NCBI GenBank assembly: GCA_965204725.1 | Contig: OZ242005.1 | Span: 64,001 to 128,000 of the forward strand | Source: Candidatus Latescibacterota bacterium | GTDB taxonomy: Bacteria; Latescibacterota; UBA2968; UBA8231 | Length of the DNA: 64,000 nucleotides | Reading direction: 5' to 3' | Shown: piece after piece, positions 2,612 to 52,427 of the stretch | Numbering within the stretch: position 1 is the stretch's first letter | Layout of the letters: every line of letters starts with the position of its first letter | Translations under genes and position numbers: made by a program | The notes under the pieces: generated by a model | The model's database searches: none | Seen by the model: the letters and a program-made list of their open reading frames with translations, nothing else | Told to the model about the DNA's origin: nothing

Positions 2612-2908
2612 TTTCACCCACGTCCTCCACCCCAGCCCGCAACAACTCAGCCACGCTCCACGCTTGAGCGATGCAGCCGCGCGGCGCAAAAGGCGGCTCG
2701 GCGTCAAATATCTCCGAAACCGTGCCCAAGCCCGCTTCGTGCAGGTGTTCAGCAAAGCCGTCGAGGAGGGCGCGGGCCACGCTGACGATCCGCCCGGCCA
2801 TGACAACGACAGAGGGCGGTGATGTACGGCCCGATCAGCCATGCCCACACCGTGCCTTGGTGATACGCGCCATCGCGCTCCCAAGGGCCGCCCGCATATC
2901 GGGCGCAG
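2612..2908 (-). pseudogene. Diverged duplicate of the 3' end of the glycogen debranching enzyme gene
   Basis: Aligns by eye to 4382-4677 with 8 substitutions and a 1-bp frameshift insertion. Confidence 0.93.
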
Positions 2909-3298
2909 CTACCGCGCCCCCGCGATCAATTGCTTCAGGTTACTCCACGTCCACTCATAAACCTTGTCTGAGCGGCGTGCCATGGCAGGTTTATGACATA
3001 CCTTCTTGGGGCGTCCCCACAGCAAAAAATATGGCTTCTGTTCTTCTTGAGTGATGGTTAGCTCAGCAGCCACACCCTTTGCATCATGGGTATGTTCGCC
3101 GCAAATGACGATGGTAAGGTCTGTCTCACATATACGCTCTCTCACCTTATCCTTCCATTTTTCGGCGAATGGTTCCTGCAAGGAATAATCTACAATCTCG
3201 AATGGCGAATCAGGATTTTTCGCTTGGCCCACCAAAGCATCTCGTAGCTCTGCATCGTGGTCGAAGTCGAAACTGATAAAGGCGCGTTTTGTGCTCAT
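2909..3298 (-). CDS. Stand-alone TIR domain protein (MTH538/DUF1863, Thoeris ThsB-like)
   Basis: [10 protein letters not shown] start, [17 protein letters not shown] with putative catalytic Glu, YEWTWSNL end; AGGAG RBS. Confidence 0.85.
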
Positions 3299-3358
3299 TG
3301 TCTAGTCTCCTTATACACTGAGGTTGTAGTATCTGATTGATTACATTACTTCAGACAT

Positions 3359-4147
3359 TTAGCTAAGGCAAGATCGAACAGTTTCTTGAATCACATCAAT
3401 GGGAACTACCACTGCCAAACCCGAATTCTCTTGGAAAACCATTCTTCTTTGACCAGTTTGCTTGCTTATCGCAACATCTTCATAAGGGATGTATGAAGAA
3501 ACCATCCCGAGCAAAAGCGAGCTCATAATGGACTGTGTATTAGTGATACGAATTTGTTCTGGTTTGGTTACTACTGGTCCTCCACTGTTCCCCGGAAATA
3601 TAAAAGAATCAATCAGTATATTTGGGTTTCCCTGAAACCAATCTTGAATACGCGCTATAGTACCGTGACGAACGATTGTGTAATTTCGTTCCTCCCCAGC
3701 CAAACCCATTGGAAAGCCGAGGACAAAAACCCCATCGCCTTCACTGATTCGTTGGCTTGCTTCTTCCCGTAAAATTGCATCTTCATTTCCTCGAAAAACT
3801 TCAACCTCAATCCCATATTGCTCTAATATTTCTATAGGGATAGGTATAACTGCTACATCAGCATCTCTGGGGTGTGTAGTCCACCGTGCTGAGCCATCCT
3901 CTGCCTTTGATTCTATAGAGAATATCTGTGAAGGACTATTTAGGGGGCGATTAAAGCGAGCTACTATGACATCAGAACCTTCAACTACGTGGCGGTTTGT
4001 TACTAAGAAAACTTTGAAATTCTGCTCGCTATCGTTTAGCTCTTTTCTCAACAGGAAGCCTGTTGCTATATACTCAACCTCATTTTCTTCTATTGGGATT
4101 CCTAAAGCAACAACTGCGTTTAGATATTTGGGTGGGATGAGTGCCAT
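3359..4147 (-). CDS. Cytoplasmic trypsin-like (PA clan) serine protease
   Basis: ATGF, VTNRHV (His), DVAV (Asp), GFP, PGNSGGPV (Ser); no signal peptide; AT-richer than flanks. Confidence 0.88.
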   Translation of the reverse strand: MALIPPKYLNAVVALGIPIEENEVEYIATGFLLRKELNDSEQNFKVFLVTNRHVVEGSDVIVARFNRPLNSPSQIFSIESKAEDGSARWTTHPRDADVAVIPIPIEILEQYGIEVEVFRGNEDAILREEASQRISEGDGVFVLGFPMGLAGEERNYTIVRHGTIARIQDWFQGNPNILIDSFIFPGNSGGPVVTKPEQIRITNTQSIMSSLLLGMVSSYIPYEDVAISKQTGQRRMVFQENSGLAVVVPIDVIQETVRSCLS

Positions 4148-4364
4148 AGCGATTCCCCTGAATTTATCTGAAAACCTTCATGCCATAGCTTATTGATGAG
4201 TACGCCTAGCGAACAATATACCACCGCTAGGACCGCCACGCAATGGCATCTAATCGAATCGTTGCGGCCGCCGCTCACCTAGCAGCCGGGCGGTCCGAGA
4301 TCAACGATCTGCATGCGACCAGTCAAGCCCTTTATCAGATATAGGCCGATGCAGATACACAACG

Positions 4365-6314
4365 TTAGTTCCTAATTCCCTTTTCACCCACGTCCTCCAC
4401 CCCAGCCCGCAACAACTCAGCCACGCTCCACGCCTGAGCGATGCAGCCACGCGGCGCAAAAGGCGGCTCGGCGTCAAATATCTCCGAAACCGTGCCCAAG
4501 CCCGCTTCGTGCAGATGCTCAGCAAAGCCGTCGAGGAGGGCGCGGCCACGCTGGCGGCCCGCCCGGCCATGACAACGACAGAGGGCGGTGATGTACGGCC
4601 CGATCAGCCATGCCCACACCGTACCTTGGTGATACGCGCCATCGCGCTCCCAAGGGCCGCCCGCATATCGGGCGCAGTACGCCGGGTCGCTCGGCGAGAG
4701 GCTGCGGAGGCCGCGCGGGGTCAGCAAGTGTTGGTCGATCACGGATAAGACCCGCCGCGCCCGCTCGCCCTCGACGAGCGGAAAGGGCAGCGAGAGCGCG
4801 AACACTTGGTTCGGGCGGATCGCCCAGTCCGGCCCCTCGGGCGCGACCACGTCGCAGAGATACCCCCGGTCTTCGCACCAAAAGAGACGCTCAAAGGAAG
4901 CCCGCACCTCGGCCGCACGTTGCCCGTAATCGGCGCGGTGCCCAAACCTCTCGGCCAAGTGCTGCAAAATTCTGAGCGCATTGTACCAGAGGGCATTGAC
5001 CTCCACCGGCTTGCCCATGCGCGGCGTGACCACCCAATCGCCGACCTTGGCGTCCATCCACGTCAGTTGCACCCCCGGCTCGCCAGCCGCGAGCAGGCCA
5101 TCGGCATCCACCCGAATCCGATGGCGCGTACCGCGCACATGCCAAGCGGCTATGTCCGCTAGCGTGGGCCACAGCGTGCGGGCAAACTCGTAGTCTTGGG
5201 TGTATTGCAAATACTTGTAGAGCGCGACAAAAAACCACAACGTCGCGTCCACCGAGTGGTATTCAGGAATCGCCCCCGCGTCGGGAAAGCGGTTGGGGAT
5301 CATGCCCTCGCTGACGTGCGCGGCAAACGCCGCAAAAATGCCCCGCGCCTCGGCAAAGCGGCCGGTGACCAAGCAGAGGCCGGGCAGGGCAATCATGGTG
5401 TCGCGGCCCCAATCCGTAAACCAGTGATAGCCCGCGATAAGGGTGTGCAGGCCGTCTCCGCGCCGCACCAGAAACGAATGGGCCGCCCGCGCCAGCGACC
5501 CCAGCACCGGGTCGGCGGCCCAAGAAGCGCACACCTCCACCTGCTGACGACGACCGATCTCGCCAGCGAGCAGCGCGAGGGGATCGCGGCCAGCGGGCGG
5601 CTCAGTGGTCGCGAGTACGCCAACGATGGCCCCCGGGGCGAGCCGCAGGCGCAAGCGACCGGGCGTGAACAGATCCTCGCTGTGGTCGAGGCCGCGCTCT
5701 TCCTCACGCGGATATTGGAAGTTGTAGTACCAGTCTGGAGCGGCCTCCCAACACGCGCCTGGGGCGAGCAGGTGGGCGGTGGGTTGCTCTCGATAAGGGC
5801 GGTAGGCCAGCGCGTCCGCAGCCCAATCGGCCCCTAGAGCCACGTGCTCGTTGGCCTGCATCAAGTGGTGATAGTCCCGGCCGGCGAAAAAGGGGCGCAA
5901 TTCCAAACAAAGCGGGGCCGGCGCATTCACCAGCTCGTACGCGACGACCACGGCGTCCTCGCCCGCGAGCAAAGCCAGCCGCTTGCGCAACACCCACCCG
6001 TCGCCCGCGTACGTCCACGTCGGCACCGGCTCGGGCGCAAAGGCCGTCAGCCATTGGTCGCCCTGGGGGTGCATGACCCCGGGGAACATGCTGCAACTCA
6101 GCTCAACGCGGGCTTCGGGCAGGACCAAGGTCTCGTCGAGCCGCGAGAGCAGCACCACCCGGCCAACCGGCGGGCAGGTCGCCACCACCAGCAGACCGTG
6201 GTAGCGCCGGGTGTGTGCGCCGCTAACCGTGGAGGAGGCCCAGCCGCCCAAGCCATTGGTCTCCAGCCACTCGCTGTCCTGCGGCGGTCCGCGGTATCGA
6301 CGGTCCTTTGTCAT
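4365..6314 (-). CDS. Amylo-alpha-1,6-glucosidase / glycogen debranching enzyme
   Basis: [58 protein letters not shown]. Confidence 0.93.
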   Translation of the reverse strand: MTKDRRYRGPPQDSEWLETNGLGGWASSTVSGAHTRRYHGLLVVATCPPVGRVVLLSRLDETLVLPEARVELSCSMFPGVMHPQGDQWLTAFAPEPVPTWTYAGDGWVLRKRLALLAGEDAVVVAYELVNAPAPLCLELRPFFAGRDYHHLMQANEHVALGADWAADALAYRPYREQPTAHLLAPGACWEAAPDWYYNFQYPREEERGLDHSEDLFTPGRLRLRLAPGAIVGVLATTEPPAGRDPLALLAGEIGRRQQVEVCASWAADPVLGSLARAAHSFLVRRGDGLHTLIAGYHWFTDWGRDTMIALPGLCLVTGRFAEARGIFAAFAAHVSEGMIPNRFPDAGAIPEYHSVDATLWFFVALYKYLQYTQDYEFARTLWPTLADIAAWHVRGTRHRIRVDADGLLAAGEPGVQLTWMDAKVGDWVVTPRMGKPVEVNALWYNALRILQHLAERFGHRADYGQRAAEVRASFERLFWCEDRGYLCDVVAPEGPDWAIRPNQVFALSLPFPLVEGERARRVLSVIDQHLLTPRGLRSLSPSDPAYCARYAGGPWERDGAYHQGTVWAWLIGPYITALCRCHGRAGRQRGRALLDGFAEHLHEAGLGTVSEIFDAEPPFAPRGCIAQAWSVAELLRAGVEDVGEKGIRN

Positions 6315-6362
6315 CCAACCCTAAGTACTGAGTCACCTTTTCAGGTGTTGCCGCTGCGTCCG

Positions 6363-6408
6363 GGATCGAGGGCGTCCCGCCCTCGCGAGGGCAAGATGCC
6401 CTCGATCC
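6363..6408. repeat. Intergenic palindrome (REP-like)
   Basis: ggatcgagggc...gccctcgatcc outer arms with inner palindrome gccctcgcgagggc. Confidence 0.6.
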
Positions 6409-6432
6409 GGTCCGCGGTATCGGCGGAGCGGG

Positions 6433-8388
<1,956 letters not shown>

Positions 8389-8452
8389 GCGAGCTAACTC
8401 CTCATTAGGGGTGGAAATGGTCGTGCGTAGCGCAAACTAATAAGGCAGCCGC

Positions 8453-9391
8453 CTATTCGCCAAACCCCTCTATCACGTAAATCTCATCGTTGCCGTCGCG
8501 GTCAGAGCTAAAGGCGATGGAAAGACCATCCGGCGACCACGAAGGCGATCCGTCGGAGCCACTGTGGTACGTCAGGCGGCGCACGTTATCACCATTGGCA
8601 TCCATCACGTAAATATCATAGTCGCCGTCGCGATTGGAGTCGAAGGCGATGAAACGACCGTCGGGCGACCACTCAGGAGACCCGTCAATGCTACCGTCGT
8701 TGGTCAGGTTGCGCCGGTTGTCCCCATTGGCATCCATCACGTGAATCTCATGGTTGCCCGTGCCCCTAGAGTCGAAGGCGATAGAAAGACCATCCGGCGA
8801 CCATGCAGGCCCCAAATCATTGCCATAGTCGCCGCTCACTTTTTGCAGATTGCCCCCCGACAAATCCATCGTGTAAATTTTCCTAGCACCAATGACGCGG
8901 AGAGAGGTGAAAGCGATGGAAAGACCATCCGGCGACCACGCGGGAAACCAGTCGCTGCCACTGCTGTCGGTCAGGCGGCGCACATTATCTCCATTGGCAT
9001 CCATCACGTAAACCTCATAGTCGCCCTCATGGCGGTCGGAGTAGAAGGCGATGGAAAGACCATCCGGCGACCACGAAGGCTGCCCGTCCTTGCTATCGTC
9101 ATTGGTTAAGTTTCGCACGTTATCACCATTCGCATCCATCACGTAAATCTCCGTGTTGCCATCGCGATTGGAAGTGAAGGCGATAGAGCGACCATCGGGC
9201 GACCACGAAGGATCCCAGTCGCCGCCACTGGCGTCGGTCAAGCGGCGGATCTCATACCCGGCCTCATTGCTGATGCCAACGGGCGACGGCTCGGAATCAT
9301 CGCAGCCGCTGACCGCCAGTACGCAAAACGCTGAGACGGATTTCAGCACCGTCCACATCCGGCCCGAAAATACACGCTGTTCCTCGTTCAT
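8453..9391 (-). CDS. TolB-like PD40 beta-propeller lipoprotein
   Basis: Lipobox VSGC; six PxWSPDGxxIAF...EIYVMDANG repeats. Confidence 0.88.
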   Translation of the reverse strand: MNEEQRVFSGRMWTVLKSVSAFCVLAVSGCDDSEPSPVGISNEAGYEIRRLTDASGGDWDPSWSPDGRSIAFTSNRDGNTEIYVMDANGDNVRNLTNDDSKDGQPSWSPDGLSIAFYSDRHEGDYEVYVMDANGDNVRRLTDSSGSDWFPAWSPDGLSIAFTSLRVIGARKIYTMDLSGGNLQKVSGDYGNDLGPAWSPDGLSIAFDSRGTGNHEIHVMDANGDNRRNLTNDGSIDGSPEWSPDGRFIAFDSNRDGDYDIYVMDANGDNVRRLTYHSGSDGSPSWSPDGLSIAFSSDRDGNDEIYVIEGFGE

Positions 9392-9442
9392 CGTTTCCTC
9401 TCCTTCTGCGGTTATACCGCCTTATGTTGTATGGTACACGGA

Positions 9443-9498
9443 GCGGGAATCCACGCTGCAACCCCGCCCACTGGACGCCCGCTTACGCGGGCGTGACG
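9443..9498. repeat. Degenerate REP-like element
   Basis: gcgggaatcca ... ctggacgcccgcttacgcgggcgtgacg; similar to 2521-2575. Confidence 0.45.
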
Positions 9499-9564
9499 GC
9501 TATGAACTGGCAAGTGCTATGTGTCGTATGCCACAAGAGGACGCCCCTCGCACGGACGTGACTG

Positions 9565-17440: not shown

Positions 17441-18220
17441 ATGACCCGATTCAAGGTTTGTCTTAGTATGATTTGTCTTGCTGCTTGTATGAATAGTTAC
17501 GCAGAGTCGGGGAATGGGAATGCGTCATCCCATTCCGAACAGGCCGAATGGGGCTACGGCGTCGAGAATGGACCCGCCGTTTGGGGACAGCTTAGCCCCG
17601 AATATGCCCTTTGCGCTGTGGGGACGCACCAATCGCCTATCGATCTGGTGAATCCCACGTCGGCGGAGCTTCCTGCCATCGCCTTCAACTACCAGCCAAC
17701 AGCCCTGCGTATCCAAAACAACGGACACACCGTTGTCGTCGCGTCCTCGAAAGAAAACTGGATTGAGGTGGATAGTACGAGATACGAGTTGCTACAATTC
17801 CACTTTCACGCCCCGAGCGAGCACACCGTGGCCGGCCAGTCGTTTGCTATGGAGATGCACCTCGTTCATCAAAATAAGGATGGCGCGTTGGCGGTCATTG
17901 GGGTGCTCATGGAGCGCGGTAAGGACCACGCCGCATTCAACTCGCTCTGGGCACATCTACCAAGCACCATAGGGGCAGAACAACAGGTTGAGCAGGTTGC
18001 CGTGGAAGCGGACTCCTTGTTGCCGAGCGCAAGGTCTTACTATCGCTACGATGGCTCGTTGACGACTCCGCCCTGCTCAGAAGGGGTCAAATGGTTTGTG
18101 CTGACGACGCCCATTGAATTGTCCGAAGCGCAAATCGCCGCATTTGCCGCTATCGTCCATAGCAACAATCGGCCCGTGCAACCGCTAAATGGACGCCAAC
18201 TCCTCGTCAATGTCCAATGA
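17441..18220 (+). CDS. cah: Periplasmic alpha-carbonic anhydrase
   Basis: Signal peptide; QSPID, NNGHT, QFHFHAPSEH, EMHLVH, GSLTTPPCSEGV, NNRPVQPLN. Confidence 0.95.
   Translation: MTRFKVCLSMICLAACMNSYAESGNGNASSHSEQAEWGYGVENGPAVWGQLSPEYALCAVGTHQSPIDLVNPTSAELPAIAFNYQPTALRIQNNGHTVVVASSKENWIEVDSTRYELLQFHFHAPSEHTVAGQSFAMEMHLVHQNKDGALAVIGVLMERGKDHAAFNSLWAHLPSTIGAEQQVEQVAVEADSLLPSARSYYRYDGSLTTPPCSEGVKWFVLTTPIELSEAQIAAFAAIVHSNNRPVQPLNGRQLLVNVQ
18177..18213 (+). repeat. Direct repeat copy 1 (3' end of carbonic anhydrase gene)
   Basis: 37 bp, 2 mismatches to 19779-19815; last 28 bp identical. Confidence 0.88.
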
Positions 18221-18228
18221 GTAGTGTG

Positions 18229-18489
18229 TTACCTATATATGCTACTACGATGACCGACCTTCACGACATATACAATCAGGTCATCGTCCTCAATGGAGTA
18301 GATGATTCTATAGGCTCCTTGACGTACTCGGTATCTACCCAATCCAGCGAGTTTTTCAACTCCTCGTGGACGAGGATTTTCCGTTAAGGCACGAATCCGA
18401 GCAATGATACGCTGTCGTTGTTTCTTCTGAGGAATCGCTTCGATTTCCCGGACGGCAGAAGGCTTGATCCGAATTTTATAGCTTGCCAC
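18229..18489 (-). CDS. RelE/ParE family toxin
   Basis: ENPRPRGVEKLAG, YRVRQGAYRIIY, VKVGHR. Confidence 0.92.
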   Translation of the reverse strand: MASYKIRIKPSAVREIEAIPQKKQRQRIIARIRALTENPRPRGVEKLAGLGRYRVRQGAYRIIYSIEDDDLIVYVVKVGHRSSIYR

Positions 18490-18709
18490 TGCGCTTGAGA
18501 TCTTCGACGACTTCCTCGAACGACAGATTAGGTTCAGCCTCCCTCTCGTCGAAGGCCCTTAAATCCTCAAAGTCCTCAGTTAGAGCGAGCTTAACTGCAT
18601 CATTGACTAAGGCAGAGATTGACCTATCTGCTTCGGCAGCCTTCAACCGAAGGGCACGGTGAACCGCAGGGTCAAAGTAGATGGTACTTCGTTTGTTCGT
18701 ATTGCTCAT
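18476..18709 (-). CDS. CopG/RHH-type antitoxin
   Basis: RSTIYFDPAVHRALRLKAA...SISALVN; acidic tail; overlaps toxin start. Confidence 0.85.
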   Translation of the reverse strand: MSNTNKRSTIYFDPAVHRALRLKAAEADRSISALVNDAVKLALTEDFEDLRAFDEREAEPNLSFEEVVEDLKRSGKL

Positions 18710-18743
18710 AAAAAAACGATAACCTCACAGTGTTAAACCGAAG

Positions 18744-19409
18744 TCACTTTACTGTCCCTATCTGAATCTCCATCTGATTCATTAATTCCATTAAATTGAC
18801 AAACATATCGTGGGTAATGCACAGCGGCCCTGGGCAGAGGCCCCAATTGAGTTTATTCAGTCCCTTGTATTCGACGGAGATAACGGAATTTTTATGGACA
18901 ATACAATTGCGAATTTGGCGTATGTCTCCCATTAGATCGGCTTCGATCTTATTCTTGTCTGAAACATTTAATTCTTTAGCAATCTCACCGCGATATCGAT
19001 CTTCCCACAGTGCATAGATGGCCACAATCATCCACTTGGCGATCTGATTCGGGAAGTCGCCATCGGGCGCGGATCGATCGAGCACTTCCCCGATGGGCAA
19101 AGACGAGGGAAACGAGCCTTGATGCAAAGTTCCTGTTCCTACACTATATGGTTCACTTAACGGAACAGAGTGCTCTCTTACCAAATTTTTGATAAACTTT
19201 GATCCCTGTTGCAACCCCAAGTACGCTACCTTGTAACACATATAGATCTCTTGACATTCCTTCTGAAAGGAATGCAGGGCCTCAGATTTCAACCGAATAG
19301 ATCGCTCCCAGAAATTCTTCCGCTTAGGGCCAACCTTTCTCACCTGTAAGTTCTTTAAGTCGTACTCGGAACGAAGATCGTCGTCCATGGCGGTTTCAAT
19401 CTTCTTCAT
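18744..19409 (-). CDS. BrnA-like antitoxin N-terminus fused to a putative HEPN domain
   Basis: DDLRSEYDL..L.VRK.GP.R N-terminus overlapping the brnT stop; C-terminal part has IRNCIVH (Rx4H); start moved to ATG 19409. Confidence 0.6.
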   Translation of the reverse strand: MKKIETAMDDDLRSEYDLKNLQVRKVGPKRKNFWERSIRLKSEALHSFQKECQEIYMCYKVAYLGLQQGSKFIKNLVREHSVPLSEPYSVGTGTLHQGSFPSSLPIGEVLDRSAPDGDFPNQIAKWMIVAIYALWEDRYRGEIAKELNVSDKNKIEADLMGDIRQIRNCIVHKNSVISVEYKGLNKLNWGLCPGPLCITHDMFVNLMELMNQMEIQIGTVK

Positions 19410-19668
19410 AGTATTCTCTCTCCCTGCGGGTTGCTGCTCTCGCACTAATCAAACGAGTCTTATGTTCTCTTTCTGTATATGATACGATCAATAGGCGGCT
19501 TTGTTGGGACTCACCAATGATGATATAGCGATCCTCTCTGTCAGAATGGTCGGGATCGTAAAAGTCAATATAGAGTGGATCATTGAAAACGGTTTTTGCT
19601 TCGTCAAACGAAACCTCGTGCTTCAACAGATTAGATTCTGCCTTGGTTTTATCCCACTCGAATTCCAT
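19396..19668 (-). CDS. brnT: BrnT family toxin
   Basis: MEFEWDKTKAESNLLKHEVSF, DPDHS..EDRY, RLISARAAT..E. Confidence 0.92.
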   Translation of the reverse strand: MEFEWDKTKAESNLLKHEVSFDEAKTVFNDPLYIDFYDPDHSDREDRYIIIGESQQSRLLIVSYTEREHKTRLISARAATRREREYYEED

Positions 19669-19778
19669 AGGATAATATCAATAGTATATATACTTTTAAC
19701 CATTTAGTTCGGTCTCGGCCATACAAGCGGCCGGGCAAGTCTTGATATAGGATAGTGTACCGCAGCCACTTATACAAA

Positions 19779-19815
19779 TGCAGCCGATAAATGGACGCCA
19801 ACTCCTCGTCAATGT
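19779..19815 (+). repeat. Direct repeat copy 2 (diverged carbonic anhydrase 3' end)
   Basis: tgcagccgataaatggacgccaactcctcgtcaatgt. Confidence 0.88.
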
Positions 19816-19827
19816 GCCGAATGCTGC

Positions 19828-21732
19828 TCAACCGTGAAAATAAGCGTGGCCCTCGCCCATAAACCAGAAGATATCCACCAGATACGACACCCCAATCCCC
19901 AAGAAGTACCCGGCGATCAACCCCATAAAAAACGGCCGTGCTTGGCGGTACGCGGCAAGGCCCCCATAGCGCATAATCGCGCTCTTGGCCACCCACGCCA
20001 GCAAGACCGAAAACGCGATGAGGCGGGTCATCCACAGCGGGGCTATTGCAATGCCCACCGGATGCAGCGGCCACCAGTGGAAGCGATACTGGAGGAAGGC
20101 CAAAATTGAGTAGGCCCCCATGCCGATACCAAAGTAGGACAGCTTGTTCCAGTCGGTGGGCCAAGGATCGTTGAAGTGGCGAATCACCCCGTTGTACGCC
20201 ATGCCGCCCGCGCCGCCGCCAGCGATAAAATACCAAGAGCCGAAATTGCCCGCGCCGTATTGGTAGCACAGCGAGAGGACGAAGTAAAGACACGTGGTAA
20301 AGCCCACTACGGCGGCAAGGCCCAGTGCCCAAGCCATCGACCGGCGAACCCGGTACAGTTCGCCGAGCCTTGCGCCGTGCGCCGCGGCCGGCATAAAGAG
20401 CGATTGCACGTCCCCGAACCACGTATAGGAAATCCCCAGCGCCACCAAATTGTGCCCGCCGATCCCCGTGCCGGTTATCGCCAGCGCAAAGGCCTGAGCA
20501 CCCACCGGCGGCGTCAAGAAATAGACCCCGGCCTGCACCACCAGTCGCGTGATGCCGTAATAGGCGACCAACACGCCAAAAACAAAGAGCGCGGCGATGT
20601 GGAGATCCATTCCAGACCGCCACAGCCAGCCGAGGATATAGACCAACGCGGCCATGAAGCCGCAAACCGCCGTGCGATAGGAAACCATTTCCTCGCGGTC
20701 GTCTATAGTTCGCCGTCCCCACAGGGCTTGGCGCACGACCGCCCCTAAATGGCCCCGCGCCATCCACAAGCTCAACAGCACCATCGCCGTAAATCCGCCC
20801 CAAGCCTGCCAAGAAAGCGACTGCATCCCCCAGACAAAGGCGTCGGGCCGCGTCACATCGTAGCCGATGCGGTTGGTAATGCCCTCTTGCAAGACAGCCA
20901 CCAAGTAAAAGAACACGATGCTGAACGAGACGTTGGTACTGACCAAGTACATAAAGCCGATCACCGGGAAGTAGAGCATTAAGCTGATCGTGGGAAACTC
21001 CCGGCTCAGTTGCAGATTGACGGCGTGGTTGAAGTTGATTTTGGGAAAGCCGATGTAGAACGAGCCAATGATATTGAAGAGGATCATCCCCAGTGGAATG
21101 GCCGCGCCGATCCAAAACCCCTTAGAACGCACAATCGCCCGCCCGTCGTCGTCGATCAGCAGGCGCGGCATCTCCATCAGGGGAAAGACTAGGCGCTCGT
21201 TCTCGACCCACTGACGGCGAAAGATCACCACCAAACAGAAGCAGGCAAAGTACAAGGTCAGAATCAGGCTCAACAGCCAAAACAGCGGCCCGATCCAGAC
21301 CTCGAAGGGCAGGGCTTGGCCTTTGGGCAGCCCTTCGTAAAACCAGCGCATGGCGTCGCCGTCAGCGCGCGGCACAACCCAATCGGGCAGGTAGGGATGA
21401 ATGTTGCCCGCCCAGTCGTTTTCCGGGGTGGCACCGTAGTACGGCGACGAAACAATCGCCAGCAAGGTGCCGACGATGAAGGTCGGAATCCCGGTCGCGG
21501 CCAAGCCCATAATCACCAAGGTCGCCAGCTCGGCCGGCCGCAACCTCCACGTGGGCCGCAGCCGGCGCACCAGCGCATTGGCCAGCAGAATCACCACGAA
21601 GCAAAAGCCGGCGCTAGTCGGAAAATACGACCAAGTAATCTCCGAAGAGCGCACCATCCAAATCGAATAGGGCGCCCCCGTAACAATGGCCACCACGACC
21701 ACAATCCCCAGCACGGCCGAGCGCAAAGTCAT
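19828..21732 (-). CDS. Polytopic membrane protein, DUF6785/DUF6784 (OPT-like) family
   Basis: Many TM helices; RRQWVENERLVFPL, WWPLHPVG, RYGG...ARPFFMGLI. Confidence 0.75.
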   Translation of the reverse strand: MTLRSAVLGIVVVVAIVTGAPYSIWMVRSSEITWSYFPTSAGFCFVVILLANALVRRLRPTWRLRPAELATLVIMGLAATGIPTFIVGTLLAIVSSPYYGATPENDWAGNIHPYLPDWVVPRADGDAMRWFYEGLPKGQALPFEVWIGPLFWLLSLILTLYFACFCLVVIFRRQWVENERLVFPLMEMPRLLIDDDGRAIVRSKGFWIGAAIPLGMILFNIIGSFYIGFPKINFNHAVNLQLSREFPTISLMLYFPVIGFMYLVSTNVSFSIVFFYLVAVLQEGITNRIGYDVTRPDAFVWGMQSLSWQAWGGFTAMVLLSLWMARGHLGAVVRQALWGRRTIDDREEMVSYRTAVCGFMAALVYILGWLWRSGMDLHIAALFVFGVLVAYYGITRLVVQAGVYFLTPPVGAQAFALAITGTGIGGHNLVALGISYTWFGDVQSLFMPAAAHGARLGELYRVRRSMAWALGLAAVVGFTTCLYFVLSLCYQYGAGNFGSWYFIAGGGAGGMAYNGVIRHFNDPWPTDWNKLSYFGIGMGAYSILAFLQYRFHWWPLHPVGIAIAPLWMTRLIAFSVLLAWVAKSAIMRYGGLAAYRQARPFFMGLIAGYFLGIGVSYLVDIFWFMGEGHAYFHG

Positions 21733-42254: not shown

Positions 42255-42256
42255 CG

Positions 42257-45311: not shown

Positions 45312-45350
45312 AAAAAAAAACGGGAAGCAGGCGTCAAGCCCACTTCCCGT
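45312..45350 (-). terminator. Intrinsic terminator after the CBM9-like gene
   Basis: acgggaag...cttcccgt stem followed by a T run on the minus strand. Confidence 0.75.
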
Positions 45351-45379
45351 CTTTGTATAACCTATCCAAAGGCCATTGA

Positions 45380-46336: not shown

Positions 46337-46385
46337 TACTGCATCTCCTTAGCTGTGAGAAGTGGACGAAAAATTTGAATGGTGC

Positions 46386-46414
46386 ATAATAAATTCTCGC
46401 CAAAAGGCTGTCAA
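46386..46414 (-). promoter_or_regulatory. Sigma70-like promoter heading the envelope locus
   Basis: TTGACA-17 bp-TATTAT on the minus strand, about 50 nt above the ATG at 46336. Confidence 0.65.
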
Positions 46415-46498
46415 GAAAAAAGTTGCTCTACTAGCCCCTTCTACATTCGTCTGCGCCCCCTATCGTTTGTAGCCAATAAGGCCAGCGGGGGGCGGTAA

Positions 46499-46861
46499 TC
46501 AACCTTTCAACAAGATGCTCACAAGCAAGCCAACCAGCGCGACAAACGTTCCGATCTGGATGCCAATAAGCCAGTCAATGCGCCGGTTGACGGCAGCGAT
46601 GCGGCTATCGACAGAGGCGATGCGGCTATCGACAGAGGCAAAGCGACTATCGACAGAGGCGAAGCGGCTATCGACAGAGGCGAATCCTCGCTGCATGTCC
46701 TGTCGCAGCGCGGCAATCTCCTGTCGTAGCGAGGCAGTGTCCTCGCGGTGGTGAGTCTCGACCCGCTCCAAGTGACGCTCAATGGAGTCAAGCCGCTTGG
46801 ATAGCTCGGCGGCGACGCCGGGCAGCGGATCGGGTTTTAGTTCAGGAGGGGAGGTCGTCAT
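46499..46861 (-). CDS. Small coiled-coil protein with C-terminal membrane anchor (DUF1640/CCDC90-like), copy A
   Basis: AGGAG RBS; heptads incl. four (F/I)ASVDSR; hydrophobic tail WLIGIQIGTFVALVGLLVSILLKG. Confidence 0.75.
   Translation of the reverse strand: MTTSPPELKPDPLPGVAAELSKRLDSIERHLERVETHHREDTASLRQEIAALRQDMQRGFASVDSRFASVDSRFASVDSRIASVDSRIAAVNRRIDWLIGIQIGTFVALVGLLVSILLKG
46596..46679. repeat. 4 x 21-bp in-frame tandem repeat
   Basis: gcgatgcggctatcgacagag and variants. Confidence 0.9.
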
Positions 46862-46914
46862 GGTCTGCAACTCCTATCGTTTGTGGCCAATAAGGCCAGC
46901 AGGGTGGGTGGTAA

Positions 46915-47103
46915 TCAGCCTTTCAATAAGATGCTTACAAGCAAGCCGACCAGCACGACAAACGTTCCGATTTGAATGCCAATAAGCCAATCGAGGCGCC
47001 GGTTGATGGCGGCGAATCCTCGCTGCATGTCCTCTCGCAGCGCGGCAAGGTCCTCTCGTTGGCGAGTCTCGATCCGGTCCAAGCGACGCTCAATGGAGTC
47101 TTG
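46915..47103 (-). pseudogene. 3' part of coiled-coil gene copy B, separated from its 5' part by an insertion
   Basis: QDSIERRLDRIE...SILLKG*, collinear with copy A from residue 24 onward. Confidence 0.88.
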
Positions 47104-47271
47104 ACCCACAAAACAAGGAGCATCGCAAAAAAACCATCGCGGCGTTCCGGCAACTCGACAGGGATGGCGTCATTGACTTGCACCACGAGGGAGGCGCAAA
47201 GACGGGGCGTTGGCAGATATTCGCGCCGCCCAAATTCCGCGATGCCAATGCCGTTGAGCAAGCCTAATCCA

Positions 47272-47337
47272 CGACAAGCGGCCCCCCATTACTCGACAAG
47301 CGGCCCCCCATTGTTCGACAAGCGGCCCCCCATTGTT
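47272..47337. repeat. Three 22-bp direct repeats (iteron-like)
   Basis: cgacaagcggccccccatt(act/gtt/gtt). Confidence 0.85.
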
Positions 47338-47410
47338 GACCGCAAAATCGCCGCAAGTGAACAGGTGACAGGAACTTACAGCGATTTTCGCTGACTCCCC
47401 CCCTTACAAC

Positions 47411-47488
47411 CCCTTACTGCCCCAGAGCAGTAAGGGTGGTAGGAAGGGCTATGCCCGGGCCGCTGACGCTGGCATAGCCCTTCCTACC
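47411..47488. repeat. Two adjacent perfect inverted repeats (10-bp and 18-bp stems)
   Basis: cccttactgc/gcagtaaggg; ggtaggaagggctatgcc/ggcatagcccttcctacc. Confidence 0.85.
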
Positions 47489-47744
47489 CTCTATCCTTCT
47501 CCCAACGCTCACACGCGCAACACAGCGGCTAATCAGCGGTTTTTATCAGGGGGGCGGCGCGAAAGCCTCGCCAAGAGCGGCGAGTTTTTCGTACACTCTC
47601 TAAAAACCCGGACCGCGCGGTACTCGGCTTGCTCTTTTGCGGCGTGGGTGGACGAGCGGGCGGTACTTGGTCAATGACCCTCAGAACCGCTCAAAACGCT
47701 TAGGAGGCGTTACAGGGCGTTTAACGCGATGGAGGCAAAAAACG

Positions 47745-48461
47745 ATGCGTGGTAGGCCAATGAGGATGACGACGGCGCGGCTGAAAGCGATTGGGGAGCA
47801 TCTCGAGGAGGGCGACGACCTAATGGGCGCGTGCCACAAGGAGGGCGTAACGTTGTCCCTCTATAAGCGTGCCTACCGCAGGCTCAAGGCGAAGGACAAG
47901 GCGCAACGCAAGCCCACAGCACGGCTACGAGCGGCTTGGAAACAAACCCTTACGCCTATACGTGCGCGTATCGCGCCTACGCGAGGCGCAGGTAATCCGC
48001 GAGTGCGGACCGGCCCCAAGCAAGGCAAGCAAGGGCGCGAGGTCGTAGCCACAGCGGATAAGGTCCTTGAGGTTTTACAGGGCTTGACCTACGGCTATAC
48101 GTTGGCGGTGTCGTGCTCGATGGCAGGCTTGGCCGTTGGCACGTTCAAAAGCCGCAGATATGCTCTCCAGCGGATTGCGCCCGAACACTTGACGGACTGG
48201 GAACGCTTGACGCTCATGGCCTACGAGGCTTGCACGGAGGCGATCTATTCAGAGGAACGCCCCGACAACCCGCTCCAGCGCGTGGAGCGAGCCGTCCGAC
48301 ACTTCGAGGAGCGAGAGTGGCTTAACGGCCGTATCCTCAAATTCACGGAGCGGCAGTGGGGGCGCAACGATGGCTTACGCGCAGGGATGGCCGCGAACAA
48401 GGCGCGGATGCGTTCCGCGCTTTGGCAAGCGGGCGAGCACGAGCAGGCTCGCGGCGTATAG
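47745..48461 (+). CDS. Double-HTH protein resembling a phage terminase small subunit
   Basis: GGAGG RBS; MRGRP start; two GxxLxxxCxxxG(V/L)-type HTH units; WLNGR...ERQWGRND tail. Confidence 0.5.
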   Translation: MRGRPMRMTTARLKAIGEHLEEGDDLMGACHKEGVTLSLYKRAYRRLKAKDKAQRKPTARLRAAWKQTLTPIRARIAPTRGAGNPRVRTGPKQGKQGREVVATADKVLEVLQGLTYGYTLAVSCSMAGLAVGTFKSRRYALQRIAPEHLTDWERLTLMAYEACTEAIYSEERPDNPLQRVERAVRHFEEREWLNGRILKFTERQWGRNDGLRAGMAANKARMRSALWQAGEHEQARGV

Positions 48462-48495
48462 CCGTTATTCTAAGCAAGAGGGATAGGAGGTTGCT

Positions 48496-48885
48496 ATGGG
48501 CAAGATTACGACGGCGGTTTCAATGTGCTTGTCGCTGGCGTTGTATTGGCATTATTCGGCGGCGTTGGCAGAGGTCGAGGGAGAGCGAGACAAGGCGTTG
48601 GCGCACGTGGCAACGGTGCAGGCTCAGTTGACAGCGGCTATTGAGGAGCGAGACGAGCACAAGGCGATGAGGGACAGTGCAGGGGCGTCGGCGTGGCGCG
48701 AGGTGGTTCGGGCCGATGAGTTGCGGCAGGTGCTAAAGCAGATGCTGGAGGATAGGTGGCTATCCGCACAACGGGCCGCTCAGTTGTGCAGCGGTTGGAA
48801 CTGTGGTAAGCTGCGGGTGGAGGCTGAATTGTGGAAAGGTCGTTTTGAGGATTTTAACTATCGACGGCGCATTTTTTTTGATTAA
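48496..48885 (+). CDS. Hypothetical N-anchored coiled-coil protein
   Basis: GGAGG RBS; hydrophobic N-terminus; ERD-containing heptads. Confidence 0.6.
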   Translation: MGKITTAVSMCLSLALYWHYSAALAEVEGERDKALAHVATVQAQLTAAIEERDEHKAMRDSAGASAWREVVRADELRQVLKQMLEDRWLSAQRAAQLCSGWNCGKLRVEAELWKGRFEDFNYRRRIFFD

Positions 48886-49166
48886 AAGTCATTATTGATA
48901 AAACGGCATAATTATCGGCTGTTTTTCCATCGACGATCCTCGATCTACCGCGAATCGGCCCTTTTTCGGCATAATTATCAAGTTTTTGTGGTAAGCCAGC
49001 GGCGTTGCGGCTTGTGAACCTACTCTGCGGCTCCCTATATTGCCCGGCGCCGCGGCAACGCCCTGCTTGGAGCAAGGAAAGGCTAAGGTATGGTGCTCGG
49101 TTAGGAACGTGTTTATGTTGTGGTTCTATCGTATCTCAATAATCTTACACAAAAAGGAGTGTTGCG

Positions 49167-50411
49167 ATGAAATCGCTATTGGGATTTTTGGCGTGTCTGT
49201 TGGTGTTGGTGGCCGGTTGCGGAGAGGATACGAAGCGGTCAGTGGGGCCGTCAGCGGCGAAGGTGGCAAGTTCGACGCCTGAAACGGTGTGGACGGGTCT
49301 GAAGGCCGATGGCAAGTACACTACCGCAGGTTCGCCACTTGCGGCGTTTATAATGGCGGCTGGCGCGGGCGATCTGGCGGCGGTCAAGTTGTTTGTACAG
49401 GCGGAGGTCGATAAAGAGGGGCAAGCTATTGTCCACCTAGCGGGTATTGGTCGGTCACGGACTGCCCTTCATGCGGCGGCTCGTGGCGGTCATCGCGCAG
49501 TGGTTACGTACCTTCTCGGTCAGAGTGCGAGCGTCAGCAGTACGGACGGGAATGGGGACACGCCGCTACATGCGGCGGTTGAGGCAGGAAATCTTTTGAT
49601 GGTGCGGGAGCTTGTCGGTCAAGGGGCGAGTGTCGATGCTAAGAACACAGCAAGCGAGACGCCGTTGCATTTCGCGGTGACCCTAGGGCACTTGCTGATT
49701 GTGAAGTATCTGGAAGGGCAAGGAGCCGATCTTACGATCATCTCCACTGACGGCTTGACGCCCTGGGCGTTGGCGAAACTTTTTGGTAGTACGGCGATAG
49801 TGACGTTCTTGGATTCGACGACGGCGCGGGCTTTTGTTGATTCGGCTGGCGCGGGCAACTTAGAAGTTGTCAAGTCATTGGTAGCGGCGGGTATGCCGGT
49901 TGAGACTAAGGTCGAATACGATGGCGGGCGCGGTCCTAATTTTAATCCAAGCTGGACGGCACTGCTTAGGGCGGCGGGGAAGGGTCATCTGGCGGTGGTT
50001 GAGTATCTGATCGAGCAGGAGGCGGATGTGGATGCGGCGACCGCGATCTTCATAAACGATTTTCCTCTTAGTTTGTATTATGGCGAGACGGCTCTGTACT
50101 TGGCTGCGGGTGCTGGTCATGCGGCGGTGGTGAAGGTGTTGTTGGCAGCGGGTGCGACGGTGGATGCTAGGAACTATTATGCCTATACGCCTTTGCACCG
50201 GGCGGCGTTGTTTGGTCATCTGGCTATCGTCCAGTATCTGATTAGTTACGGGGCGGATGTGAATGCTGTGGCCGGCGTCAACGGTTCGGTTCGTTACTTG
50301 GCGGGGAGATGCGCCGAGAGGATTGATGCGGATCTATTTCCCGAAAAAATTGCCCGTTGCCGGTCGGTGGTGGCTTATTTAGACTTGCTGCCCGATGACG
50401 CTGACGAGTAG
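49167..50411 (+). CDS. Ankyrin-repeat lipoprotein
   Basis: AAGGAG RBS; lipobox VAGC; repeated TPLHxA/TALxxAA...GHxxxVxxL...GAxV. Confidence 0.93.
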   Translation: MKSLLGFLACLLVLVAGCGEDTKRSVGPSAAKVASSTPETVWTGLKADGKYTTAGSPLAAFIMAAGAGDLAAVKLFVQAEVDKEGQAIVHLAGIGRSRTALHAAARGGHRAVVTYLLGQSASVSSTDGNGDTPLHAAVEAGNLLMVRELVGQGASVDAKNTASETPLHFAVTLGHLLIVKYLEGQGADLTIISTDGLTPWALAKLFGSTAIVTFLDSTTARAFVDSAGAGNLEVVKSLVAAGMPVETKVEYDGGRGPNFNPSWTALLRAAGKGHLAVVEYLIEQEADVDAATAIFINDFPLSLYYGETALYLAAGAGHAAVVKVLLAAGATVDARNYYAYTPLHRAALFGHLAIVQYLISYGADVNAVAGVNGSVRYLAGRCAERIDADLFPEKIARCRSVVAYLDLLPDDADE

Positions 50412-50475
50412 GTTAGTCTGTCTTATTCGTTGGTAGGTTCGTAGCGGCCGTAGCGACCGCAGCGAATAGCTTGAC

Positions 50476-50509
50476 GCCCCGTAGCCCATACAGTGGCTAC
50501 GGGGCTTTT
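50476..50509 (+). terminator. Intrinsic terminator after the ankyrin gene
   Basis: gccccgtagcc/ggctacggggc stem + tttt. Confidence 0.75.
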
Positions 50510-50621
50510 CTCTGCCGCTTGACCGCCCCTAACGCACGGAACGATATTGAGCAATCCTTGTAAGGTGAACCACGTCGCGGCTGAACCACTGGCAACGTAA
50601 ACCGGGCGCGGCAAGTGAAGG

Positions 50622-50703
50622 AGCGGCGTTGGTTGGGCCGATTGCGTAAGCGCGGCCACCGGGCCGGTTTTCCCGGTTAGAGCGGCCAACGCCGCTTTTT
50701 TTT
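50622..50703 (+). other. Branched stem-loop ending in a T tract at the element's right end (possible sRNA or terminator)
   Basis: agcggcgttgg/ccaacgccgct closing stem, internal hairpins, followed by a T run. Confidence 0.5.
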
Positions 50704-50709
50704 ATGGGG

Positions 50710-50782
50710 CTTGCCGCTTGAATAGCTCGGCAACGACGCCGGGCAGCGGATCGGGTTTTAGTTCAGGAGGGGAGGTCGTCAT
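50710..50782 (-). pseudogene. 5' part of coiled-coil gene copy B
   Basis: MTTSPPELKPDPLPGVVAELFKR, near-identical to the N-terminus of copy A; GGGAG RBS. Confidence 0.88.
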
Positions 50783-51043
50783 GGTCTGCAACTCCCAATT
50801 TTTAACATAGCTGATAGATTAAAGATATAGACAAAATGCTTAGTACACGATAGTCACCCAAAGGACGTTACGCATATTTTCGCGCTGTGTGCTTGCCGAG
50901 CGGCGGCGAGAGGACGGACAGTTCTTGCATTGCCGTTTTCTTCCTCGTATCCTTCATGCAAAGTCGCCGGCCTTATCGCGCTTGCCCGCTGAGTTCCTCC
51001 CGCTAGTCGGCCTCGTCGCCGCGGAGATCGCACATTCAATCCC

Positions 51044-52072
51044 GTGAACCGTCTCTTCCTCATCGGATGGGCCGCCATCCTATTCGGCAACCAGCCAGCC
51101 AACGCCCAGCCGCACCTCTACACCATCGGCCTAGCCTTTACCGATCTCGTCGATCAAGAGGCCCTGCCCGTCCACCTCGCCGATCAACACCCCCTCTTAA
51201 TGCGGGAAATTGAGCGCACACTCAGCGACATCTTTGCCGACATAGGCCGCTTTCGCGCCGTGCGCTTGCGAAGCATGGGCGAGGCCCGCGATCCTAATCA
51301 AGGGGAAGAATCCGTCGATTACATCGCCCACTTCATGCTCAACAAGGCTTATAAAACATACCACAACAAGGTCATTCACTACGAGAACTTGGGCCTATTC
51401 GACGACGGAAGGCCGAGCGAAGACCGCTCTTATGAAGTGATTTCCCTGCCCGCCATCGTCGCCCAACTCGAAGTCAAGCTGGAGGACCCGCGCCGAGACA
51501 GAATTTTTTGGTCGGACTTGCGCGACTCGTCGGCCGTGATACCTTATGACAAACAACTATACCTTTATAATAGTTGGAAGTATCCGGGCGCGTCACATCC
51601 TAGTTTGACGCGCGCTTTCCTAGCCGACCTTCTCCGTTTGCAAATGGCCAATCCCTCCACAGAACGCGCCCTGAATGTCGCCGAACGCTGGTTTATCTCC
51701 AATCCCAGTAGCGACCTCGCCGTTGCCCGAGGGGTGTTAAAGGGCCTAGCGAGCAATCTAGCGCCCGACCTAGACGCGAATTTGCCGCTAGAGGGCCGCA
51801 TAGCAGCCCTATTACCCGCACGGAAAGGCAAACCCCACGTCCGGCTAAACATCGGCGCTCGGCACGGGTTGCTAAAGCGAATGCGGTTCGACGTGTGGCG
51901 GCCTAGGCCATCGCAGCAGAAAGTCGGGCAAATAGAGGTGGTCGAGATGGATTCCACTACGGCCATTGCTCGGCTGCGAAAACTCGACAAGGAACTCAAA
52001 AAACGCGGCGATAGCCTACAAATCCAAGACCGAGTCATTTCCCCCAAACGCCCTTTGAGGAGATCATTATGA
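51044..52072 (+). CDS. Exported protein with FlgT-like C-terminal domain
   Basis: Signal ending ANA; VRLNIGARHGL...FDV...VGQIEV...A. Confidence 0.6.
   Translation: MNRLFLIGWAAILFGNQPANAQPHLYTIGLAFTDLVDQEALPVHLADQHPLLMREIERTLSDIFADIGRFRAVRLRSMGEARDPNQGEESVDYIAHFMLNKAYKTYHNKVIHYENLGLFDDGRPSEDRSYEVISLPAIVAQLEVKLEDPRRDRIFWSDLRDSSAVIPYDKQLYLYNSWKYPGASHPSLTRAFLADLLRLQMANPSTERALNVAERWFISNPSSDLAVARGVLKGLASNLAPDLDANLPLEGRIAALLPARKGKPHVRLNIGARHGLLKRMRFDVWRPRPSQQKVGQIEVVEMDSTTAIARLRKLDKELKKRGDSLQIQDRVISPKRPLRRSL
52041..52072 (+). repeat. 32-bp direct repeat copy 1 (gene end + RBS + ATGA)
   Basis: cccccaaacgccctttgaggagatcattatga; 2 mismatches to 52396-52427. Confidence 0.9.
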
Positions 52073-52392
52073 CCGAACTGACCGAACACCCGCATCCGCA
52101 GCTTGAACGCGATCAAGGCCGCGCAGAAGGCATCCTAGAGCAGATGATAGCCCGGCTGGATCGCTTGGAGGACGCCCACCGGCAAGAGATGACCGCTTTG
52201 CGGCAGGCGATGACTGCCTTAGATCTCGCCCACCGGCAAGAGATGACCGCCTTGCGGCAGGAGATGACTGCCTTAAGCCAACACCTCGACCGCCGCCTCG
52301 ACGCTCAATTGCGCTGGATTATTGGTATCATCATAGGCGTAGCCAGCCTACAAGTAGCTGTTGTATCCATCCTGTTGAAGGTATTGACCTAA
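52069..52392 (+). CDS. Small coiled-coil protein with C-terminal membrane anchor (DUF1640/CCDC90-like), copy C
   Basis: Internal repeat AHRQEMTALRQxMTAL x2; tail WIIGIIIGVASLQVAVVSILLK. Confidence 0.75.
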   Translation: MTELTEHPHPQLERDQGRAEGILEQMIARLDRLEDAHRQEMTALRQAMTALDLAHRQEMTALRQEMTALSQHLDRRLDAQLRWIIGIIIGVASLQVAVVSILLKVLT

Positions 52393-52395
52393 CCG

Positions 52396-52427
52396 CCCCC
52401 AAACGCCCTTTGAGGAGGTCACTATGA
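52396..52427 (+). repeat. 32-bp direct repeat copy 2
   Basis: cccccaaacgccctttgaggaggtcactatga. Confidence 0.9.

Follow-up and report, generated by a model that had tools for sequence, protein, structure and literature searches.

This work analyses a stretch of 64,000 nt from the genome of a Candidatus Latescibacterota bacterium (contig OZ242005.1; G000:C1:64001-128000; hereafter the window), in which three unrelated cargos each lie behind a different gene and are each followed by a second copy of that gene's 3′ end. The best explanation of these cassettes is that they are strain-variable DNA, mostly defence and toxin-antitoxin modules lodged behind conserved genes, and not autonomous mobile elements. 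We propose, at a probability of roughly 60%, that the cargo moves together with a donor allele of the neighbouring gene's end and is integrated by host recombination, either through one homologous crossover combined with a non-homologous join or through the integration of a Campbell-type circle. The observations that carry this proposal are the geometry of the cassettes and its recurrence, the lack of recombinases and shared sites, the presence in relatives of empty sites and of cargo without a repeat, and the allele-like differences between the repeat copies. Defence and toxin-antitoxin genes turn over fast, yet many of them reside in genomes without visible mobile-element machinery, and this genome and its genus supply about 20 cases that are dated and can be compared with one another; the closed genomes from related species include empty, repeat-free and single states as well as stacked ones.

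The genome (G000) measures 5.43 Mb in two contigs at 60% GC, and was compared with at least 30 further species genomes of the same genus (sponge Candidatus Latescibacterota), many of them closed. The public sequencing runs that contain the window stretch are sponge and marine metagenomes.

Three cassettes in the window

Comparison of the window with itself returned three repeats, of 297, 37 and 32 bp, exactly where an earlier note made from the letters alone had placed them. Pfam searches upheld that note's labels for the debranching enzyme, the carbonic anhydrase, the protease, the TIR protein and the toxins of the toxin-antitoxin genes, but not its label 'FlgT-like' for the third host gene (51044..52072), which matched no Pfam family at E ≤ 0.01.

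In cassette 1, the host gene (4365..6314, minus strand) is an open frame of 649 amino acids (aa) for a glycogen debranching enzyme (Pfam GDE_N 1e-69 and GDE_C 1e-126, residues 15-636), the orthologues of which in the same-genus genomes show 84-90% identity. Its 3′ end contains the proximal repeat copy (4382..4677, minus strand, 296 nt), followed by a 5-codon tail with the stop (4365-4381), and a spacer (4148..4364, minus strand) then leads from the host stop to the cargo. The cargo comprises, on the same strand, a trypsin-like serine protease of 262 aa (3359..4147; Pfam Trypsin_2 1e-12; PADLOC PDC-S45 1.7e-31, a candidate defence family; GC 0.40-0.44) and a ThsB-type TIR-domain protein of 129 aa (2909..3298; Pfam ThsB_TIR 4.8e-8), whose stop codon is the final triplet of the cargo. 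The distal copy (2595..2908, minus strand) is an orphan gene end, consisting of 297 nt (2612-2908) with a 1-nt insertion and of its own 5-codon tail and stop. Aligned with each other, the two copies (2612-2908 and 4382-4677) share 97.0% identity over 297 bp with one 1-nt indel (E 1e-144), differ by seven synonymous changes, one non-synonymous change and one indel, and diverge 5 codons ahead of the stop, from where each reads five different codons to its own stop. Measured against the relatives, the derived changes are five substitutions and the indel, a frameshift, in the distal copy and three changes in the proximal copy; a contig from run X16, which belongs to another study, lacks the extra base at position 2774 of the distal copy.

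Cassette 2 follows an alpha-type carbonic anhydrase gene of 259 aa (17441..18220, plus strand; Pfam Carb_anhydrase 1e-49). The repeat, 18177-18213 against 19779-19815, extends over 37 bp at 94.6% identity (E 1.4e-8); behind it the proximal copy stops after 2 codons and the distal copy after 7, the latter retaining the ancestral tail and stop of the carbonic anhydrase gene (19779..19837, plus strand). Four genes on the minus strand lie between the copies, namely a ParE toxin (18229..18489; Pfam ParE_toxin 1e-13), its partner open reading frame (ORF) of 77 aa (18476..18709), an ORF of 233 aa with a sub-threshold HEPN match only (18744..19445), and a BrnT toxin (19396..19668; Pfam BrnT_toxin 1.5e-28). 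The cargos of cassettes 1 and 2 have a GC content of 40-49% (0.42-0.49 for cargo 2 alone), as against 55-71% in the flanks. The earlier description of the host genes as intact holds for their open frames and complete domains, but not for the last 5 codons in cassette 1 and the last 2 in cassette 2, which are unlike those of the distal copy.

Cassette 3 is built around a stop/start overlap. The host gene (51044..52072, plus strand) encodes 342 aa, and the repeat, 52041-52072 against 52396-52427, covers 32 bp at 93.8% identity, that is, with two differences (E 1.4e-5). The proximal copy comprises a ribosome-binding site and an ATGA stop/start overlap, the ATG of which is the start of the cargo gene (52069..52392, plus strand) for a 107-aa coiled-coil protein with a C-terminal membrane helix, and the distal copy (52396..52427, plus strand) gives a ribosome-binding site and start ATG to the downstream DUF4159 gene (52424..53638). 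The composition of this cargo is ordinary, unlike that of the low-GC cargos 1 and 2. Small coiled-coil proteins of this kind with a C-terminal membrane helix form a family in the genome, with seven further matches at 31-42% identity (C1 306893, 1687024, 1780727, 2766332, 2767775, 3137114 and 3137918).

Recurrence of the pattern across the genome

The whole genome was scanned for direct repeats spaced 60-12,000 bp apart, with genes called by a crude custom gene caller. After removal of multi-copy, intragenic and tandem-paralogue repeat pairs, the first count gave 36 pairs in which one copy lay on a gene stop and the other downstream of it, and 24 mirror-image pairs at gene starts. A low-GC filter, which required the cargo to lie at least 6 GC points under its flanks, yielded 105 pairs at 51 loci, comprising 17 end-anchored loci, 5 start-anchored, 8 ambiguous ones (end-anchored, but a called ORF contains the far copy), 13 of other kinds and 8 intragenic. 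In 1000 random placements of the 43 non-intragenic pairs, end-anchored cases arose at a mean of 1.57 (maximum 6) versus 17 observed, and start-anchored cases at a mean of 1.62 (maximum 7) versus 5 observed; the ratio of end to start anchoring, 17:5, has a binomial p of 0.017. Gene-end anchoring exceeds chance genome-wide, an enrichment that the earlier note had set as a check on its idea, and its suggestion of a general route that needs no recombinase agrees with the presence of the pattern at about 20 further gene ends. Insert sizes across the loci range from 0.3 to 8.4 kb. One locus (L013) was discarded as tandem paralogues. Tandem amplification of cassettes, in the manner of the published virus-like life cycle of restriction-modification units, was considered for two candidate regions (C1 3.507 Mb and 1.770 Mb) and rejected, because both regions are small-gene tandem paralogues or a single diverged duplicate, and not arrays of repeat, cargo and repeat.

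Start anchoring is represented in the window by a fourth cassette (46792..50795, minus strand), in which an 83-bp direct repeat (46792-46874 and 50713-50795, 96% identity) spans the ribosome-binding site and first codons of a coiled-coil gene (46499..46870, minus strand). The 3.9 kb between its repeats hold two unassigned ORFs and an ankyrin-repeat gene (49167..50411).

Defence or toxin-antitoxin genes occur in 14 of 22 loci by Pfam and PADLOC, so that the enrichment for such cargo which the earlier note had proposed to test is present. Among the cargo genes named across the loci are a type IIG restriction-modification enzyme (L001), an Mrr-type nuclease (L015), PIN/RHH pairs, a second PDC-S45-type protease, PDC-M19A/B, an LmuA-like (Lamassu-like) protein, and helicase, ATPase and PLD genes; the three window cassettes contain no restriction-modification gene. 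At L018 (3234-7562), a Dsr1-like defence gene is apparently split into a SIR2-domain ORF of 546 aa and a C-terminal ORF of 895 aa.

The Pfam search found integrase or recombinase families in none of 103 cargo ORFs at 20 loci and in none of the window cargo ORFs. An IS4/5 transposase, as an identical 271-aa ORF, is present in 3 of 20 loci and in none of the window cassettes, and its copies read as secondary insertions. The whole genome encodes three tyrosine recombinases, none within a cassette, and no serine recombinase. At either cargo border, no 7-mer was common to four or more of the 22 loci; together with the Pfam result, this border search bears out the earlier statement that the window cassettes carry neither integrase nor transposase nor a common attachment sequence. 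An integron test gave neither a common cargo-end sequence nor an integrase beside any locus, although no structure-based attC search was made. Attachment at tRNA or tmRNA genes was ruled out, there being no tRNA gene in the window, and Rfam gave no known RNA family in the window. A diversity-generating retroelement was rejected for cassette 1 because Pfam found no reverse transcriptase in the window. A palindromic multi-copy element (window 2519-2576 and about 6336-6390) matches by pattern at 46 places in the genome and is present in many copies, of 85-98% identity, in the same-genus genomes, with very high contig depth at these places; as a hidden recombination site it was rejected, since it lies near just 2 of the 22 loci.

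The repeat copies differ from each other in the manner of alleles. Over 21 repeat pairs, with L015 excluded because its repeat is mostly non-coding, 56 of 84 differences are synonymous and 28 non-synonymous, which agrees with the earlier remark that they are mostly silent, and they fall on codon positions 1, 2 and 3 as 14, 12 and 58. The synonymous share exceeds the 25% expected under uniform mutation (binomial p = 2e-15); if one copy decayed freely while the other was selected, about 38% would be expected, a figure that is a rough estimate and not a computed value. The distal copies retain stop codons, at two loci a different one. Because the differences are mostly synonymous, both copies, as judged by sequence comparison, descend from working alleles of different lineages.

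Empty, repeat-free and stacked states in relatives

Cassette 3 offers the clearest case of a primary event. Its site is empty in 11 of 11 aligned relatives, and the distal repeat equals the single empty-site copy in seven of them, with the other four differing at 1-2 positions. A second arrangement occurs in four other genomes, in which there is no repeat and the same stop/start overlap links the gene end to a homologous small ORF. This ORF, of full length in G005 but degenerate in the other three (G007, G043 and G004), is followed by a hairpin and a separate ribosome-binding site. At the two variable positions of the repeat, the proximal base of G000 is that of most of the four second-arrangement genomes and its distal base that of most empty sites, although neither position is strictly diagnostic. 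Cassette 3 may thus be read as DNA of the second arrangement that entered a genome of the first.

For cassette 2, the empty site is found in G045 and G022, where the carbonic anhydrase gene terminates in a copy and tail of the distal type; in G045 this gene continues directly into the convergent DUF6785 gene, and the two matching pieces of the query overlap by exactly 37 nt. In the closest relative, G046 (about 92% identity here), the gene carries a tail of the proximal type, behind which a portion of the same antitoxin gene is found, and a partial distal copy with the ancestral tail is retained beside DUF6785, 100 kb off; G046 therefore probably shares the insertion of G000. The ParE/antitoxin module (18230-18740) is a discrete unit of about 510 bp that at least 8 same-genus genomes contain in other contexts (82-91% identity), and in G011 and G002 it directly adjoins the DUF6785 gene. 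A 2821-nt contig from run X16, assembled in a different study and with 41 differences, covers the whole of cassette 2 with both repeats. In run X1, of another study, contig depth is about 2 over that part of cargo 2 which holds the 233-aa ORF and BrnT (18659-19892) and about 20 around it, and one contig of this run includes the carbonic anhydrase gene and the ParE module and then continues into unlike sequence; a shorter cargo in cassette 2 of a related strain may account for this.

At cassette 1, relatives show the cargo without the repeat. G046 is colinear with G000 over 4139 nt at 90.4%, from the debranching-enzyme gene through the tail, spacer and protease to the TIR gene; the proximal-type tail is present in relatives, and the spacer is common to G046 and absent from G014. 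Past the TIR stop, all that G046 retains of the ancestral gene end is about a dozen bases, and it lacks a long repeat; G014 contains the same two cargo genes with a longer gene-end remnant, again without a long repeat. The homology to G000 ends 8 nt past the TIR stop in G046 and at the TIR stop in G014, with a different sequence beyond in each. The octamer that comes after the TIR stop in G046 agrees at 6 of 8 positions with the initial 8 nt of repeat 1 in G000, a possible microhomology. G008 carries a different low-GC cargo of 14 kb behind the debranching-enzyme gene and then an orphan gene end, which is 95-100% identical to its own gene, begins about 125 nt upstream of the repeat start in G000 and has an internal deletion. 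The repeat at this gene is thus 297 bp in G000, at least about 415 bp in G008 and not a long one in G014 and G046, and the genomes hold three or four different joins at one gene end. An empty site with the G000-type tail was not found for cassette 1 in the same-genus genomes.

Several further features adjoin cassette 1. The 104-nt element in its spacer (4194-4297) belongs to no Rfam family and has several matches each in G001, G011, G012 and G023 at 71-76%. Beyond the orphan gene end lie two ORFs of 66-bp (22-residue) tandem repeats, in window 1-2449 and the upstream C1 62612-64000. In G046 the cargo is directly followed by a region that in G000 is separated from the orphan debranching-enzyme end by this tandem-repeat block of about 4 kb, which would therefore be a further strain-specific insert. 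The sequence behind the locus in G046 (L058:5260-5450) and in G014 (L031:640-800) resembles what we take to be a cobalamin riboswitch.

Similar states were found at other loci. L014, the Lpd cassette, is empty in 20 of 30 genomes, with a distal-type tail, and L017 is empty in at least 10 genomes, its PIN/RHH module being located elsewhere in relatives. At L001, the restriction-modification cargo occurs in G044 without a distal copy. At L008, the cargo without a distal copy is present in G046 and G002, with junction overlaps of 2-4 nt, and in G019 a new 1.8-kb insert is followed by an orphan repeat fragment and then by the older cargo, which is a stacking of cassettes. At the AcrB-family gene, stacking is found in G019 and G000. 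Structures analogous to those of G000 are present in the genomes of other species, namely G008, G019 and G046, and G046 carries the proximal-type tails of cassette 2 and L014. In G046 (L035, L087, L096, L097), cassette 2 is split into two halves at a distance of 100 kb, and the halves of L014 are separated by 1.37 Mb and oppositely oriented; large rearrangements of this genome have breakpoints within cassettes.

Proposed host recombination, its alternatives and known systems

Based on these findings, we propose that the conserved 3′ end of a gene serves as the homology arm. First, an incoming piece that consists of a donor allele of the gene end and the cargo would pair with the resident gene and cross over there. 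The far side, having no matching flank, would then be joined without homology to a point upstream of the resident stop, probably at a microhomology of a few bases; in an equivalent route, the piece would circularise and integrate by a single Campbell-type crossover. The outcome would read, in order, gene, cargo-linked gene end, cargo and displaced resident gene end. The 3′ border of the repeat would fall at the stop codon because the homology between strains ends there, and the repeat length would vary because its 5′ border is an accidental join. Selection would retain only those outcomes that leave a working gene, so that gene ends are favoured over gene starts and mid-gene events are removed. 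A finished cassette may afterwards be passed on to empty sites by double crossover, in which the distal copy would provide the right arm, and later arrivals would stack in front of it. Anchoring is probably not targeting, because homology ends at the stop and gene starts are used too (5 loci). The recombination steps, the form of the incoming DNA and the route by which it enters the cell are what we infer here. The genome encodes one ComEC homologue, and a Ku homologue was not found in it.

Of the two variants, the integration of a circle by host recombination had been suggested in the earlier note and stays workable, but no circle is among the joints listed from the run contigs, and at 9 loci the repeats, of just 27-43 bp, are more easily explained by a long linear anchor than by a crossover restricted to the repeat, so that the circle variant is strained there. 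One-sided homology is known to suffice for the duplication: in E. coli given a plasmid with homology on one side, single-crossover duplications were reported in 56 of 60 clones, and measured 109-950 bp in 14 sequenced clones (Amarir-Bouhram et al. 2011, PMC3240628).

Several points weigh against this proposal. The genome-wide count rests on the crude custom gene caller, eight further loci are ambiguous because their far copy lies within a called ORF, and the nine loci with repeats of merely 27-43 bp would be a poor substrate for a repeat-confined crossover. The junction could be compared with a repeat-free genome holding the same cargo at two loci, cassette 1 (6/8 nt) and L008 (2-4 nt), and these microhomologies are short and GC-rich in a genome of 60% GC and could be due to chance. 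Among the joints listed from contigs of runs X13, X15, X16 and X1, there is no circle or empty-site joint for cassettes 1 and 2, regions without contig cover in these four runs being uninformative. ComEC by itself does not demonstrate competence. As set out in the cited texts, the expected outcome of homology-facilitated illegitimate recombination is deletion of recipient DNA and not duplication (PMC5361080, PMC3240628). Finally, the two copies at L014 in G046 are identical over 98 nt though 1.37 Mb apart, while G046 shares the cargo-to-repeat junction of G000, where the distal copy has several unique third-position changes. Gene conversion, or recombination with the working alleles of other strains, would therefore reshape the copies, and synonymous bias alone does not reveal the origin of the first duplication; after the L014 comparison, this bias was dropped as proof that a foreign allele took part in the first event.

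A more far-reaching version of the proposal would make the cassettes self-propagating mobile DNA without an enzyme of their own, in which the gene end works like an address label, a circle of gene end and cargo is freed when the host recombines the copies, and the circle or a linear copy re-enters related genomes through the same gene. We regard this as doubtful. If it were true, it would let defence and toxin-antitoxin genes travel through the symbiont population and accumulate in stacks behind housekeeping genes without integrases, transposases or plasmids.

A true insertion with long target duplication is unlikely, although it accounts for part of the evidence. Here the cargo would enter at a break, and recipient DNA would be copied on both sides, for example by repair synthesis over widely staggered ends, so that no donor gene end is involved and allele differences arise later by recombination with other strains. 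The geometry fits the published class, in which repeats of 46-423 bp occur without mobility genes and two Haemophilus cases overlap gene 3′ ends (PMC2853133), and the identity of the L014 copies of G046 over 98 nt and the mere two differences within the 32 bp of cassette 3 would suit a copied target. Such copying leaves unexplained that the proximal copy has its own in-frame tail and stop, unlike the ancestral distal tail (cassettes 1, 2 and L014), and this argument is in turn weakened by the proximal-type tails of G046, whose insertions at cassette 2 and L014 are apparently common to G000. It is also opposed by cassette 3, where the gene end and small ORF are contiguous without a repeat in four genomes, and the published idea that the cargo itself cuts DNA is inapplicable to toxin-antitoxin, protease/TIR and membrane-protein cargo.

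Site-specific integrative elements are classically recognised by a replacement gene end that the element brings with it and that differs mostly at silent positions. The cassettes might accordingly be integrase-less remnants or satellites of such elements, with the replacement gene end in the attachment site, that are moved by a recombinase acting in trans, for which the three tyrosine recombinases of the genome would be available. We consider this quite improbable, given that about 20 different target genes share no sequence, that no recombinase lies in or beside any cassette and the genome-wide supply is limited to these three tyrosine and zero serine recombinases, and that the repeat borders vary between genomes at one and the same gene (297 bp, at least about 415 bp, none). 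Assembly artefacts or chance repeats hardly deserve credence, since, although the genome is metagenome-derived with 10% estimated contamination and short-read contigs break at repeats, it is assembled in 2 contigs, the spanning contig of another study excludes an artefact for cassette 2, analogous structures exist in G008, G019 and G046, and the repeat E-values and placement test rule out chance.

Compared with known systems, the route proposed here resembles homology-facilitated illegitimate recombination, in which a homologous anchor brings in foreign DNA and the other end is joined without homology or any enzyme of the element (PMC5361080, PMC3240628). However, the anchor is duplicated in our case, which needs a join upstream of the crossover, for example on the sister chromosome, or a circular intermediate. 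With the Campbell-type integration of circles it shares the direct repeats of a homologous segment around the insert and the sufficiency of host functions (PMC3240628), although 9 loci have repeats, of 27-43 bp, that are short for a crossover of this kind. A further parallel is provided by the orphan arrays at type VI secretion system (T6SS) effector, Rhs and CDI genes, for which anchor-driven insertion with displaced remnants has been proposed: modules enter via a conserved gene part and push older modules and 3′-end remnants downstream (Kirchberger et al. 2017, PMC5361080). There, as far as the cited text describes it, one gene family is involved and its own variable 3′ end is the toxin, whereas unrelated housekeeping genes serve as anchors here and the cargo genes are separate. 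In a search of the literature, no report was found of this geometry with toxin-antitoxin cargo or in Latescibacterota, which is not proof of absence.

The e14 element and phage 21 in icd, as well as cis-mobilizable elements, are site-specific elements that restore the 3′ end of their target gene. Like these, the cassettes have in front of the insert a replacement end that differs mostly at silent positions, and behind it the displaced native end; unlike these, they have no recombinase, common core or fixed repeat border, and they occupy many unrelated targets in one genome.

The closest counterpart is the insertion with long target duplication of restriction-modification units, which Nobusato et al. 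reportedly described in 2000. The later account gives its mechanism as unknown and tentatively suggests a link to breakage of DNA by the cargo (Furuta, Abe and Kobayashi 2010, PMC2853133). The two groups of insertions have in common inserts below 20 kb, direct repeats longer than 30 bp and of variable length, the lack of a transposase or integrase, repeats that align to a single copy in the empty genome (here cassettes 2, 3, L014 and L017) and a cargo GC that is often lower (PMC2853133), and L001 even carries a type IIG restriction-modification gene. They differ in that the cargo here is mostly toxin-antitoxin, protease plus TIR, SIR2/Dsr1-like, Lamassu-like or small membrane protein genes, in that about 20 loci with a measured bias to gene 3′ ends occur in one genome, and in that the proximal copies have their own tails and stops and allele-like differences, which points to a donor gene end and not to a copied target. 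Because most of the cargo is not restriction-modification, DNA cutting by the cargo would not be the cause. The geometry is therefore already published, and what this work adds is cargo that is mostly other than restriction-modification, the measured gene-end bias, proximal copies with their own tails and stops, and one genus in which empty, repeat-free, single and stacked states are found together. These cases argue that long target duplication is not a property of restriction enzymes, and they point to host recombination with a conserved gene end as the homology arm. If this is true, integrase-free acquisition could be common wherever strains exchange DNA, and displaced gene ends could be used as markers of the arrival time and source lineage of a defence gene.

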